DNA of 64,000 nucleotides, taken from IMG/VR virus record IMGVR_UViG_3300005239_000270; one strand, written 5' to 3'. Shown in pieces: positions 32,461 through 50,053 of this stretch (the stretch's first letter is position 1; every line of letters begins with the position of its first letter). The position numbers and the translations under genes were made by a program. This stretch comes from an uncultured virus (IMG/VR IMGVR_UViG_3300005239_000270). Taxonomy: Duplodnaviria > Heunggongvirae > Uroviricota > Caudoviricetes. The notes below the pieces were generated by a model, which saw nothing but the letters and a program-made list of their open reading frames with translations, was not told the origin of the DNA and did no database searches.

Positions 32461-32752
32461 TTGTGTCTCACTGAGGGTATGAGCTCCTACCACTCCCACC
32501 TCCCACGCTGATCGCGTGGTCTAACACTCTGTGTTCTATACATTTACACTATGCCTTTACTCGCATTCGCTGGCGCTTTTTTCGCTGGCCGTTTTGTTCG
32601 TGAATACACTTCACACAAGCAACAGATGAATCGCATCGCTGAAGCTCAGCGTAATGTCATCCCCGGTGAGTATCTCACCTGGCTCTCTAAGTAACAACCT
32701 CTTCCCCCCTAGCGGGGGGTTTACTTCACTGTGTTCTTTATATCTATTTACT

Positions 32753-32941
32753 ATGACTACTTTTCCTAACTACTGGACTCTCCTGTCTAACGGTCAACGT
32801 TATACATTCGATACTTACCGTGAACTCAAAGAGTTCTCTCAACAGTTATCTAACGAACGTCGTCAACGGTTTGAACAGAATGTTCAACCTTGGATTGACT
32901 ACTCTCCTGAGTCTAAGACTGTTACTGAGTATCAGTATTAA
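32753..32941 (+). CDS. Small early protein
   Basis: MTTFPNYW start follows a hairpin element. Confidence 0.55.
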   Translation: MTTFPNYWTLLSNGQRYTFDTYRELKEFSQQLSNERRQRFEQNVQPWIDYSPESKTVTEYQY

Positions 32942-33086
32942 CTACCTTCCCTCCCTTAACGGGAGGTATAAACCTTTGTACATTTCTCTCAAGTAATTGC
33001 TTGCACACATATGTGTTTCTTTACTTATTGCTTGTTGTTTCCCCCCTAACGGTGGATAAATCACTGTGTTCTTTAACTTCATCAAC

Positions 33087-33317
33087 ATGTCTAACCAACT
33101 CAAGACTCGTGTCCTTTCCAATGGCAAGTCCACTTGGCGTCTGACTCGCTTCTCCGATGAACTCTTCATCGCGAAGGGTGCCTTCAATAAGCAACATACC
33201 TTCAGGTGTGTCGCTGAAGTAGACCGCTTCGAAGACTTCCTTATCACTAAGGGCTTTGCTCTGCGTGAATCAGGACAGTCACTGGACACAATCAAGAGGA
33301 CCCCCGTGTCTGCTTGA
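33087..33317 (+). CDS. Small early protein
   Basis: MSNQLKTR start follows a hairpin element. Confidence 0.55.
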   Translation: MSNQLKTRVLSNGKSTWRLTRFSDELFIAKGAFNKQHTFRCVAEVDRFEDFLITKGFALRESGQSLDTIKRTPVSA

Positions 33318-33379
33318 TAACAACTGTATCGGCCCCTTATCGGGGCCTTTAAAACTTGGTGTTCTTAACTCATTCTTCA

Positions 33380-33556
33380 ATGAATAGTTCACAGCAAGTA
33401 GCAATCGTTGGTGGAGCCTCTATTGGCTTACTTCTCTCAGCTACTCTCTTCTTCACTGTCCCTGCTTACCACGACCTTATCGTCTGGAGCTGGACAACAC
33501 CCTGGGTCTGGGCATTAGCCCTTGCCGGTGGTGTTATTGCTTACGTCACTGACTAA
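33380..33556 (+). CDS. Small two-helix membrane protein
   Basis: Two hydrophobic segments. Confidence 0.5.
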   Translation: MNSSQQVAIVGGASIGLLLSATLFFTVPAYHDLIVWSWTTPWVWALALAGGVIAYVTD

Positions 33557-33630
33557 CAACTGTTATGCACCCTAACGGGTGCTTTATAACGTTGTGCTCT
33601 CTTTGAGCATATCCTTTACTTCGTTATCAT

Positions 33631-33876
33631 ATGCGTTTCAAAATCCCTGGTCAGGACGTCTCTGTCCGTCTCTTCGAGCGTGTCTCGACTACTGACTCTC
33701 AGTACGACATCTTTGATGTAGGACTTGAGCAAGCTGACGGTTCCATTGACTCAATGGTCGTCGGCGGATCTTTCTCCTACGCTAAGTCACTTGTCTCAGC
33801 TATGGACAAGAAGGCTGCAGATAGTAAAGCAGCACCTACTATCACTGTTCTCAATACTGATACTACTGCTGCATAA
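33631..33876 (+). CDS. Small early protein
   Basis: 81 aa after a hairpin element; followed by a terminator. Confidence 0.55.
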   Translation: MRFKIPGQDVSVRLFERVSTTDSQYDIFDVGLEQADGSIDSMVVGGSFSYAKSLVSAMDKKAADSKAAPTITVLNTDTTAA

Positions 33877-33883
33877 TCTAATT

Positions 33884-33907
33884 CCCTCCTTTACAGGAGG
33901 GTTTTTT
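33884..33907 (+). terminator. Terminator between convergent genes
   Basis: CCCTCCT-TTAC-AGGAGGG-TTTTTT. Confidence 0.7.
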
Positions 33908-33916
33908 CGCGTGCTT

Positions 33917-47628: not shown

Positions 47629-47694
47629 TCAACAGTCATAATCAACTGCCCCCTACCGGGGGCTTTTTTTATGTGTGGTATATGTAAATAATGA

Positions 47695-48093
47695 ATGCCC
47701 CTGACTATTGCTGGAACTGAAGTTGAAAATTTTATTGAAAACAAATTAGAACACCATGGATATAACGTTGAATCTCAAGTTGCATCTTCTGGAATCAACA
47801 AGGACTGGAGTCGTATTGACTTAGTTATTGTTGATGATGCATTTGATTTTGCTGAAGCACTTTCTCTTAAATATCAAGATGTTGCAGGCACGGCTGAAGA
47901 AAAACTTTTATATGAAGCAGAAAACCTTTCGTTAATGTGTCATGCACATAAGTATCACAGTGGAACTATTGTTCTTTGTGGAACTGGCTGGTCTCCAGTT
48001 AAATATTACTGGTTCTTAAATGAATACGAACCGCCCTCAAATGTAAGAATAATATCTTACGATGAGTTTGTACAAGAATATATCGTGAACTAA
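47695..48093 (+). CDS. PD-(D/E)XK nuclease-like protein
   Basis: RIDLVIV...LSLKYQDVAGTAEEKL...IVLCGTGW. Confidence 0.7.
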   Translation: MPLTIAGTEVENFIENKLEHHGYNVESQVASSGINKDWSRIDLVIVDDAFDFAEALSLKYQDVAGTAEEKLLYEAENLSLMCHAHKYHSGTIVLCGTGWSPVKYYWFLNEYEPPSNVRIISYDEFVQEYIVN

Positions 48094-48603
48094 ATGCCTG
48101 CCGCTTCTCTAGCGGCTTTAACTGCAACAACTGGTAATCGTAAAGATACTTGGAATACTCCTAAAGAAATTGTAGATAAAGTCGTTGAATATTTTGGTGG
48201 TCCTGTTGAATTGGACCCATGCTGTAATGACCGTGACAATCCAAACGTACCTTGTCACTCCTGTTTTACTGAAGAGGATGACGGACTTGCCCATCAATGG
48301 AATGCAAACTCTGTGTTTGTCAACCATCCATATAGTGATAGCAAGCACTGGATTCCTTATGCCAGACGTATGTTTGACGAAGGTAACGTACAAGAAATGA
48401 TACTACTCATCAAACTTGACATTAGTACTAAATGGTATCGTTCAATTGCTGACCGTCCTTGGATTGCTATTGACCGTCGTCTACGGTTTGGTGAAGCAAC
48501 AGGTGCAGCACCATTTCAGTCAGCATTGTTCTATCTAGGTCCTGACCCAGGTAGATTCTTTAATGTTTTTGCTGAATTTGGACAACCTTACTTGGCCTTA
48601 TAA
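48094..48603 (+). CDS. Phage DNA N6-adenine methyltransferase (Dam-like)
   Basis: DTWNTP, ELDPCC, DDGL..W, VFVNHPYS (NPPY variant), RLRF, APFQS. Confidence 0.8.
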   Translation: MPAASLAALTATTGNRKDTWNTPKEIVDKVVEYFGGPVELDPCCNDRDNPNVPCHSCFTEEDDGLAHQWNANSVFVNHPYSDSKHWIPYARRMFDEGNVQEMILLIKLDISTKWYRSIADRPWIAIDRRLRFGEATGAAPFQSALFYLGPDPGRFFNVFAEFGQPYLAL

Positions 48604-48747
48604 ATGAACCTAAACAAAGAACAGCTTAATGATGTGAAACATGCAGTGGCTTACTATATGTACCACCATGTCAGCGTCAACAACCCACGGTATAACGATT
48701 ATGAAGTTATACTACAATTGTTAAGTGAAACAAGAGAGGAAAAATGA
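48604..48747 (+). CDS. Small hypothetical protein (MNLNKEQL), allele 1
   Basis: Conserved second copy at 49171-49317; stop overlaps the hli start. Confidence 0.55.
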   Translation: MNLNKEQLNDVKHAVAYYMYHHVSVNNPRYNDYEVILQLLSETREEK

Positions 48748-48780
48748 CTACAGTAACTGANNNNNNNNNNNNNNNNNNNN

Positions 48781-49131
48781 GAAACATATAACATAGTAGC
48801 TGCCCATGGCTACTTTGGTCGCCTCATTTTCCAATACGCCAGCTTTAATAACAGTCGCTCACTACATTTCTTCTTAGCTGCCTGGCCGGTCGTCGGCATT
48901 TGGTTCACCGCCCTTGGCGTATCCACAATGGCCTTTAACTTGAATGGCTTCAACTTCAACCAGTCCATCCAGTCATCTGACGGCCACGTCGTCAACACCT
49001 GGGCAGACATCCTCAACCGAGCAGGTCTCGGAATGGAGGTCATGCACGAGCGCAACGCACACAACTTCCCTCTCGATCTTGCGTCAACTAGCGCCACACC
49101 TGTGGCCTTGATTGCACCATCTATTGGTTAA
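48781..49131 (+). CDS. psbA: psbA 3' fragment from a second genome variant
   Basis: [22 protein letters not shown]...LIAPSIG after the gap; synonymous differences from copy 1. Confidence 0.95.
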
Positions 49132-49170
49132 TTCAATTAGGCTCTATTCACTAGAGTCTTTTTTAATGCA

Positions 49171-49317
49171 ATGAATTTAAATAAAGAACAGCTGAATGAT
49201 GTGAAACATGCAGTGGCCTACTATATGTACCACCACGTCAGCATCTCCAACCCACGGTATAACGATTATGAAGTTATACTACAATTGTTAAATGAATATA
49301 AGGACGAATCAAAATGA
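49171..49317 (+). CDS. Small hypothetical protein (MNLNKEQL), allele 2
   Basis: Homologue of 48604-48747. Confidence 0.55.
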   Translation: MNLNKEQLNDVKHAVAYYMYHHVSISNPRYNDYEVILQLLNEYKDESK

Positions 49318-49505
49318 CTATCGTAAATGAAGACGGCGGACGCACAAATATGTACGCTGTCGAACCACAAATGCAAGTAATGGAGGTCTCCGTGACACAC
49401 AACGAAAATGCAGAAAAGCTTAACGGTCGTCTAGCAATGCTTGGCGTAATTGCAGCAATTGGTGCTTATGCAACCACTGGTCAGCTTATTCCTGGTGTAT
49501 TTTGA
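49314..49505 (+). CDS. hli: High-light inducible protein
   Basis: AEKLNGRLAMLG...TTGQLIPGVF. Confidence 0.95.
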   Translation: MTIVNEDGGRTNMYAVEPQMQVMEVSVTHNENAEKLNGRLAMLGVIAAIGAYATTGQLIPGVF

Positions 49506-50053
49506 CTTTCCTGGCGGGTTCTATTCAGGACCCTGCCTGATGTTTAATATTTACTACTGGTAAACAACGACCTATGCGCCCTTATCGGGCGCTATAGTTA
49601 ATAGGTGCCCGGCGATTGGGCTTGTCGTTTATATCTCAAATCAAATGGAAATCTCACGCGAACAACTCAACGAATTGACTGAAGTCATTGAAGACACAGT
49701 TGAGTATGCCTGTGACCAATACACAATGTCAGGCGAGAATGCTTGGGCTTTACTTGAATGCTTAGCTATTACAAAGCAGGCATATATTGCTGGACTCGTC
49801 ACCTCTGATGTTGCCTGATGGCAGCGTCTGTAGGCAACGTTTATGACGTCCTTGAATGCGTCAAACAAGAAGTAAAAGAGCTATGCAAACAAGAAGCTGT
49901 ATCTCAACAGCTCGTATGGCTATTGCTTAGACAGCAAGCTGATTATCAGTTGCTACTTCTAAAAGATTCAAACAACTAACAATATCCGCCCTTAACGGGC
50001 GGTGTATTTCTCTGTGCCCATTCGTGGGCTCTGTTCCTTTACTTTATATACAG

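Follow-up and report, generated by a model that had tools for sequence, protein, structure and literature searches.

An uncultured phage of the class Caudoviricetes, represented by IMG/VR record IMGVR_UViG_3300005239_000270, carries a repeated hairpin-and-box cassette in front of its small early genes. The window, i.e., the whole stretch of DNA that we analysed, has 64,000 nucleotides (64 kb; nt below). The evidence supports the view that the cassette is a phage-specific regulatory element in which structure and sequence are combined. At a probability of roughly 45%, we read it as a lineage-specific portable stop/start unit, joining a terminator-like hairpin and its U-tract to a non-sigma70 promoter or leader box. 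Such a unit would be an analogue of the promoter-early stem-loops (PeSLs) and a junction for gene exchange.

The copies share one layout, which consists of an upstream stop codon, 5-9 nt, a 6-bp GC hairpin with a T..C loop, TTTATTT, the box TRTGTYCTTTATAT, and an ATG. The box lies exactly 10 nt past the stem, and the ATG follows approximately 18-22 nt beyond the box. Where 2.09 occurrences of the pattern CCCTNNNNGGG are expected, the window has 14, and none of 100 shuffles reaches that count; 13 of these 14 are on the plus strand, at 32707-49999. When a covariance model was derived from the copies in metagenomes, it gave 13 window matches (E <= 0.0032), all on the plus strand from 32491 to 50032, and no match in the structural half (1-32.4 kb) or in the DNA-metabolism part (50.1-64 kb). 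Together with four degenerate or variant copies (32950, 37269, 39404, and 49576), the total is about 17, in agreement with an earlier inspection of the letters without database searches (the sequence-only reading), which had counted that many hairpins ahead of early genes. Every one of the eight stem pairs that it listed is present in our hairpin listing, and its fixed distance between hairpin and TGTG was recovered by a regular-expression detector as exactly 10 nt from stem end to YGTG in 10 of 11 window copies. In 11 window copies the ATG lies 31-33 nt past the stem.

The cassette is also widespread in marine relatives. Scanning metagenome contigs with GGGNNNTTTANNNNNNYGTGTYCTTTATA yielded 109 loci, and about 72 of the 80 distinct matches have the full hairpin. 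We read 106 loci (341 kb), in which the regular-expression detector found 262 copies; the gap measures 10 nt in 236 of these and the stem 6 bp in 242, and every locus keeps its copies on one strand. These loci belong to relatives, having early genes in common with the window at 50-99% protein identity. In 18 of them, the covariance model matched 162 copies, again on one strand per locus. Both the model and the scan of relatives had been proposed in the sequence-only reading, and both the 10-nt spacing and the stem covariation are kept: the metagenome relatives hold more than 200 copies with covarying stems and fixed geometry. The densest array was found in the one true relative that the box pattern retrieved from IMG/VR, G001 (41.7 kb), which has a portal-like protein with 75% identity. 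Across the 39.7 kb of the structural part of G001 the model has 0 matches; the nine that it gives lie in the final 2 kb, where nine cassettes within 1.8 kb (L205 17729-19740) each head one of nine consecutive open reading frames (ORFs) of 21-79 amino acids (aa). Several ORFs of this array are hydrophobic.

Hairpin and box are strongly coupled. A perfect 6-bp stem lies exactly 10 nt upstream of 103 of 127 distinct box-only anchors, compared to 27 of 4997 random positions; the anchors are those outside the selection made by the scan pattern, so that the coupling is no selection artefact. When 150 copies are aligned without gaps, each of the six pairs varies on both sides (174 cells), and the covariation score is 0.570, versus 0.113 for shuffles and at most 0.096 for slid partners. 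The aligned stems were pre-selected as perfect, and a figure of 100% pairing therefore has no weight. It is the pairing of the stem, not its sequence, that is selected. The position matrices give the consensus T, [S C N C C C], [T N N C], [G G G N G S], TTTATTT n n n, T R T G T Y C T T T A T A T, in which the flanking T/T holds the stem at 6 bp. Nearly all stems are strictly Watson-Crick (208 perfect, 14 with one mismatch, and only one T.G pair). As a test of which strand folds, the asymmetry between G.U and A.C pairs has just these 14 mismatched stems to draw on, several of them mis-registered, and they are too few.

The loop is equally constrained. It has 4 nt in 216 of the 262 copies, 5 nt in 37, and 3 nt in 8, and reads TAAC in 95 of 213 distinct copies. 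Its ends are T..C on the coding strand (G..A on the template) in 168 of 201 copies, and a C:G pair closes it on the template strand in 188 of 201, which bears out the description of the template loops in the sequence-only reading. Folding is predicted to yield approximately -12 kcal/mol for the RNA hairpin and -7 to -8 kcal/mol for DNA, the template strand being better by 0.5 kcal/mol. Four window copies (33567, 44171, 49576, and 49986) have a second small hairpin between TGTG and TGTYC; in such variants the inserted stem covaries as well, and the distance from TGTYC to ATG is kept.

The association with genes is equally regular. An ATG at +28 to +40 opens at least 20 codons in 177 of 201 unique copies, compared to 253 of 3000 control positions, with a median ORF of 58 aa, and 124 of the 201 copies have an upstream stop codon 5-9 nt before the stem. 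The genes of the array are small, mostly ORFans, and located at the early end, and the cassettes are confined to the early region. The leader is poor in G and devoid of a Shine-Dalgarno sequence. Alignment on the ATG, a test for leaderless transcripts, sharpened no -10-like motif; TTTATAT keeps its place relative to the hairpin rather than to the ATG.

Beside these features, we consider the signals for transcription predicted by a consensus scan of 31.7-50.3 kb. Where 13.6 +/- 3.6 terminator-like sites are expected, the scan yields 43, the cassettes included; sigma70-like sites are depleted (22 against 37.1 +/- 5.4). None of the latter coincides with the box or lies upstream of the restart cassettes 32503, 34943, and 39404. 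The claim that most copies lack a U-tract, made in the sequence-only reading, had to be abandoned, as the consensus after the stem is TTTATTT and the scan flags at least 12 copies as terminator-like. Its remark that no co-directional gene stands upstream at 34943 and 39405 holds. Re-initiation has a single conserved candidate, the box. In the stop/start unit that we propose, the hairpin and U-tract would attenuate or terminate the upstream message, or stabilise its 3' end. The box would restart the next gene, as a promoter outside the sigma70 consensus with a very short or absent leader, and/or act as a standard translation start region. The cassettes may double as junctions for gene swapping between relatives, because all of them share about 40 nt of near-identical sequence.

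Several observations weigh against this proposal. The box matches no sigma70 -35/-10 arrangement, and it is most strongly conserved in TRTGTYCTTT rather than in TATAT. Recognition by the unmodified host polymerase can only be presumed, because the T4-like cyanophage Syn9, GenBank phages, and cellular genomes all lack the box: the single match in Syn9 contains a mismatch and does not exceed chance; GenBank phages gave only partial matches, at chance level; and one genome per prokaryote species gave 4 pattern matches, as expected by chance, none of them cyanobacterial and none with a hairpin. The stem-loops of PeSLs occupy five different positions according to the available text of PMC2839356, whereas the geometry of the cassette is fixed at 6 bp and a 10-nt gap. 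An RNA-library contig (36109-36992) crosses cassette 36496, as either read-through RNA or carried-over DNA; the contigs of this library (X20) are of low depth and approximately 90% identity, and cannot show starts or ends. Finally, cassettes at the start of a unit retain the covarying hairpin, T+1, A+4, the 10-nt gap, and the box, and often lose the T-tract. Examples of such copies are window 32503 (TCTA), L099:12391 (TACA), L094:971 (TGTA), and G001 L205:17729 (TATA).

Because the hairpin is kept at unit starts that have no T-tract, a pure terminator role is insufficient, and the hairpin belongs to the start side too. This bears on the simplest alternative, namely that the hairpins are plain intrinsic terminators lying by chance beside ordinary AT-rich leaders. 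As in such terminators, a small loop tops a GC stem and, in most copies, a U-rich tail (TTTATTT) follows, and the terminator scan flags the cassettes. Chance neighbours would hardly account for an invariant 10-nt gap to the box conserved in more than 200 copies, for a stem fixed at 6 bp with conserved loop ends, or for a box that does not mutate freely in relatives. The phage also has terminators of a different kind at its convergent junctions, with 7-8 bp stems and T6. We consider the plain-terminator reading unlikely in the extreme. Two canonical-looking terminators were seen, neither of which belongs to the cassette family: 33884-33901 (plus strand; 7-bp stem and T6) and 38187-38206 (plus strand; 8 pairs and T6). 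They occur only where plus-strand units meet minus-strand genes, and provide an internal contrast.

A more serious alternative, although one we still hold to be doubtful, is that the cassettes punctuate RNA only. Long polycistronic RNAs would then arise from few promoters, and each cassette would combine a processing or stability hairpin (for example, with an RNase E site in the AU-rich tract beside the stem) with a translation start free of Shine-Dalgarno sequences. The near-fixed distance from box to ATG and the G-poor leader are consistent with this, and so is the fact that the box fits no known promoter consensus. The second-hairpin variants, which maintain the TGTYC-to-ATG distance, would be tolerated in a folded single strand. 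The phage encodes a homologue of IF-1 (54092-54322), and the RNA-library contig spanning cassette 36496 fits as well, unless it is DNA carry-over. On the other hand, the cassettes at restarts 34943 and 39404 and at the array head 32503 need a promoter, and no sigma70-like site is predicted for them. The near absence of G.U pairs (208 perfect stems versus 1 T.G) is unusual for selection acting on RNA only, and the loop bias on the RNA strand is T..C. We know of no stable RNA loop class of the T..C form.

The statistics of the loop are of a DNA type. In N4-type promoters, transcription starts at a fixed position a few nt after the hairpin, is resistant to rifampicin, and depends on gyrase and single-stranded DNA-binding protein. 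In 2002, Nakano et al. reportedly described d(cGNNAg) as a selected class of stable tetraloops. The sequence-only reading had proposed an N4-like promoter system, and one part of this claim stands, i.e., a phage-specific element with G..A loops closed by C:G. Membership of the N4 system is not supported, given the loop size, the copy number, and the lack of a recognised polymerase in the 64-kb window or in the 41.7-kb relative. Under such a mechanism, supercoiling would extrude the template-strand hairpin, to be bound by a virion-delivered or unrecognised polymerase or factor. Transcription would start a few nt past the stem, for instance at the conserved A at +4, leaving the TRTGTYCTTTATAT box as a 5' leader. 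We regard this as improbable.

The N4 reading nonetheless has real support. In both cases a short GC hairpin stands upstream of early genes, with a stem whose sequence is free if pairing is kept; at 6 bp, the stem of the cassette falls within the 5-7 bp of N4-type hairpins. The 168 of 201 G..A template loops and the 188 of 201 C:G closures correspond to the cGNNAg mini-hairpin form, as given in the accessible text of PMC13037366. Extrusion in N4 requires a G:C closing pair and a loop with 5'G and 3'A, and the N4 template strand has an A run between the hairpin and +1; the non-template strand of the cassette reads TTT-A, matching that A run (PMC4496689, from the part of the article available). 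Strict Watson-Crick stems are expected if both DNA strands must pair, the flanking T/T fixes the stem length at 6 bp, and the hairpin, T+1, and A+4 persist at unit-initial cassettes without a T-tract.

Differences are seen as well. Cassette loops have 4-5 nt instead of 3, there are 17 or more sites per genome instead of 3, the host is cyanobacterial, and the conserved downstream box with its fixed distance to the ATG has no counterpart in N4. The window ORFs scanned gave no Pfam or PHROG match to a polymerase of the T7-like or N4-like kind, in line with the sequence-only reading, which had seen no RNA polymerase gene in the window. G001 gave no PF00940 match, in a search that was weak since its control gave no match either; its large ORFs have no polymerase PHROG, and the largest, of 1542 aa, is tail-fibre-like. 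A gene for a giant virion polymerase of the T7 family (about 3500 aa in N4) was thus seen neither in the window nor in G001. An 882-aa protein of locus L166, encoded beside the early region, was considered as a hidden polymerase and dropped when Pfam, PDB, and Atlas gave no lead. It has only 8 homologues, all unannotated, and a consensus rich in Arg, Glu, and Gly. We likewise think it improbable that these are structure-specific cGNNAg promoters, at 17 or more sites per genome, served by a polymerase or factor beyond current profiles (virion-delivered or host-derived) with TRTGTYCTTTATAT as a universal Shine-Dalgarno-free leader. If true, N4-style hairpin promoters would have been invented twice, the second time independently, in a lineage of marine cyanophages that is abundant and has no recognisable RNA polymerase.

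Comparison of the window to its relatives suggests that genes are exchanged at cassettes. Out of 206 ends of BLAST blocks, 57 fall inside cassette spans, which cover 7.8% of the region; the 206 exclude contig ends and include the borders of an N-mask at 35674 and 35810. Blocks typically start 0-15 nt from the 5' edge of the hairpin, and starts recur at 40663-40668 (9 loci), 34942-34993 (7 loci), 32935-32939 (4 loci), and 37686-37699 (4 loci). The window, L157, and L165 contain a 187-nt segment (40476-40662) that holds a 55-aa ORF and directly adjoins the hairpin of cassette 40665 on its 5' side; in L142, 8 nt stand in its place. An X8 contig joins the end of psbA (49130) to the first base of a cassette with a GCGCCC stem, and an X1 contig is without 34354-34903. 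Two further joints (36535 to 40724 and 40703 to 37761) were not counted as rearrangements: cassettes 36496, 37700, and 40665 share the CCGCCC stem, and the aligner may swap look-alikes. The shuffling of cassettes, which the sequence-only reading had offered as an alternative, fits these homology breakpoints.

Exchange at cassettes could also be the work of a dedicated system. Integron attC sites are imperfect palindromes of 57-141 nt with R''/L''-L'/R' boxes and an adjacent intI. By analogy, the hairpins might be DNA sites that a phage recombinase or nuclease recognises to shuffle ORFan cassettes, with expression being secondary. As with attC, structured covarying sites separate small, co-oriented, promoter-poor ORFans, and the homology blocks that start at the hairpin 5' edge, as well as the direct passage from the psbA end to a cassette hairpin in X8, would be expected of such sites. 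The hairpin has only 16-17 nt, lacks R/L boxes and extrahelical bases, and has no integron integrase adjoining the array; no integrase was found in the window, while one is reported for the lineage in the portion of 10.1101/325100 available to us. The hairpin's tight coupling to the box and to the ATG favours expression, and the breakpoints need no dedicated enzyme, being accounted for by homologous recombination between repeats of 40 nt. This reading is therefore very unlikely.

The closest known analogue is found in the T4-like phages RB49/phi1, PST/T4, and nt-1/KVP40, where PeSLs, i.e., cassettes of a sigma70 promoter and a stem-loop, flank ORFans and mediate modular shuffling (Arbiol 2010, PMC2839356; Comeau 2014, PMC4122927; as far as their accessible text goes). 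Few PeSLs were found in S-PM2, judging from the part of PMC4503421 at hand, and cyanophages go unmentioned in the available text of PMC2839356 and PMC4122927. Like PeSLs, the cassettes are stem-loops with terminator potential joined to a start signal and repeated before small ORFans in a hyperplastic, ORFan-rich early region. They also have an upstream stop codon at their edge and coincide with breakpoints of insertion, deletion, or replacement between relatives. Unlike PeSLs, they have the box TRTGTYCTTTATAT without Shine-Dalgarno sequence instead of a promoter of the TTGACA-N17-TATAAT type, their stems covary, and their template-strand loops are G..A. The phage that bears them is unrelated to T4-like myoviruses. 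The promoter and terminator activities of PeSLs have been measured, whereas those of the cassette are predicted. The cassette is hence PeSL-like in role; what is new is the box, the fixed geometry, the DNA-type loop statistics, and the S-EIV1-related lineage.

All window copies are on the plus strand. The first (32491-32553; 26.9 bits, E 1.8e-4) has a CCACGC/GCGTGG hairpin at 32503-32519 followed by TCTA, i.e., no T-tract, a 10-nt gap, TGTGTTC, and an ATG at 32551. The next (32692-32755; 68.6 bits) has the hairpin CCCCCC tagc GGGGGG at 32704-32719, TTTA, TGTGTTCTTTATAT, and an ATG at 32753. It is followed by a degenerate copy (32950-33003) with the hairpin CCTCCC ttaac GGGAGG and a decayed box TGTACATTTC, which the model missed at E <= 1. 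The cassette at 33319-33382 (22.5 bits) combines a GGCCCC/GGGGCC hairpin (33331-33347) with a GGTGTTC box and an ATG at 33380. In the copy at 33555-33633 (46 bits), the hairpin at 33567-33582 and TGTG precede an inserted second hairpin GCTCtctttGAGC and an ATG at 33631. The cassette at 34931-34995 (42.8 bits; hairpin 34943-34959, CCACCC/GGGTGG; ATG 34993) marks a restart after minus-strand genes. It is succeeded by 35331-35394 (37.4 bits; 35343-35359, CTTCCC/GGGAAG; ATG 35392), 36484-36546 (50.3 bits; 36496-36512, CCGCCC/GGGCGG, CGTGTCCTTTATAT; ATG 36544), and 36987-37050 (41.7 bits; 36999-37015, GCCCCC/GGGGGC, a T7 tract; ATG 37048).

A second degenerate copy (37269-37319) has the hairpin CTGCCC ttatt GGGCAG, the box TTTGTAC, and an ATG at 37317. 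After the cassette at 37688-37751 (48.1 bits; 37700-37716, CCGCCC tcatc GGGCGG; ATG 37749) comes a variant that restarts after a minus-strand gene (39396-39456; 15.9 bits, E 0.24), with an 8-bp stem containing one T.G pair (39404-39423), T5, TGTGTGCCCTTTAT, and an ATG at 39454. The cassette at 40653-40715 (51 bits) has the hairpin CCGCCC ttaac GGGCGG (40665-40681) and an ATG at 40713. Farther downstream, the copy at 44159-44238 (37.8 bits) has GCGCCC taac GGGCGC at 44171-44186, a second hairpin at 44201-44213, TTGTCCTATAT, and an ATG at 44236 that opens a DUF932 gene. The cassette at 47636-47697 (34.5 bits), inside the psbA insert, has GCCCCC tacc GGGGGC at 47648-47663, T7, and an ATG at 47695 for a PD-(D/E)XK nuclease. 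The last two copies both have a second hairpin: a variant at 49564-49647 (GCGCCC ttatc GGGCGC at 49576-49592, second hairpin 49607-49621, TTGTCGTTTATAT, ATG 49645) and the final cassette at 49974-50056 (31.2 bits; hairpin 49986-50002, second hairpin 50016-50029, TGTTCCTTTAC..TATAT, ATG 50054).

The window is not a complete genome, and it contains 18 N-masked runs (e.g., 12297-13062, 29584-30444, and 35678-35809). The 132-N run at 35678-35809 replaces about 260 real letters according to aligned contigs, and ORF calls that span N runs are therefore unreliable. Gene order proceeds from a minus-strand structural module, with tail fibre (1-1524), capsid (8786-9934), and terminase (18003-19136), through a 750-nt non-coding stretch to the small plus-strand ORFs, and then to genes for ribonucleotide reductase (RNR), a MazG-like protein, ThyX, and primase/helicase. 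Most window ORFs have no Pfam or PHROG family. Two paralogous minus-strand ORFs (25887-27074, 395 aa, and 28483-29577, 364 aa) both match L166:450-1607 at approximately 46%. The non-coding region (31739-32490, on neither strand) lies ahead of the first cassette, where the structural and early modules diverge, and is 68-87% conserved in at least 8 relatives. Words of the types GAGTTAACA/GTTAACA and GTGTTCA are iterated in it, and it has two TTGACA hexamers that lack a -10; it may be an origin or master control region.

Beyond the array, the 76-aa ORF at 54092-54322 is a homologue of translation initiation factor IF-1 (PF01176, E 5.7e-16), which is unusual for a phage and may bear on the translation of the Shine-Dalgarno-free early leaders. 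In the psbA area (46541-49131), an insert of approximately 1.5 kb (47349-48864) follows or interrupts psbA. It contains a duplicated 3' part of psbA, cassette 47648, the PD-(D/E)XK nuclease ORF (47695-48093), and a Dam-like methyltransferase (48094-48603), and what remains of the old psbA 3' part is found at 48865-49131. In the window, the reading frame of psbA is interrupted, with 46541-47419 and 47293-47628 in different frames. A contig of run X1 joins 47348 to 48865, and an insert-free psbA allele therefore exists. The match of a small ORF beside psbA (49314-49505) to the chlorophyll a/b-binding (hli-like) family is weak (PF00504, E 0.0012).

The phage is neither T4-like nor N4-like. Similarity to T4-like cyanophages is confined to psbA (approximately 80%), the RNR-associated ORF resembles counterparts in T7-like cyanopodoviruses at about 59%, and GenBank phages gave no DNA match to the early region. 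A T4-like cyanomyovirus with the "novel early element" that Doron is said to have described in Syn9 in 2016 was ruled out, as only psbA is T4-like, the nearest isolate is Synechococcus phage S-EIV1, and the box match in Syn9 is due to chance. S-EIV1 provided the only match of the virion protein at 14601-16610 (47%). Its genome was excluded as a carrier of the cassette, with 0 model matches in 79 kb. On its minus strand (L001/L002), S-EIV1 has a covarying 7-bp hairpin pair of its own (43460-43480 and 43754-43774), with the common flank ccgtcaaagcgggt and the loop tgcaaac, at the head of a small-gene region. The window phage fits the uncultured BAC21E04-like marine lineage, to which S-EIV1 is closest, as described in the text at hand of 10.1101/325100. 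A term search of that text returned no mention of promoter, hairpin, motif, or RNA polymerase. Neither there nor in the literature searched, which left most subscription journals and bioRxiv supplements outside, is the cassette described. In IMG/VR, the strict pattern with a TTAWC loop had 0 matches, and the 90 loci of a loose hairpin pattern include none that combines hairpin, box, and ATG. A protein search for relatives using ORF 30557-31738 found none.

These findings provide the first candidate control signal for S-EIV1/BAC21E04-like cyanophages, which have no recognisable RNA polymerase and consist mostly of ORFans. The cassette is so regular, in more than 200 distinct copies, that it can help to place the real start codons of tiny genes (21-80 aa), to assign metagenome contigs to the lineage, and to read the early programme from the ends of metatranscriptome reads. 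With a geometry that is fixed, covariation that is strictly Watson-Crick, and a loop bias of the DNA type, it poses the question of whether the hairpin is read as DNA, in the manner of N4, or as RNA. As a portable stop/start unit, it would extend the PeSL idea, in which regulatory cassettes are junctions of modular exchange, beyond the T4-like phages.

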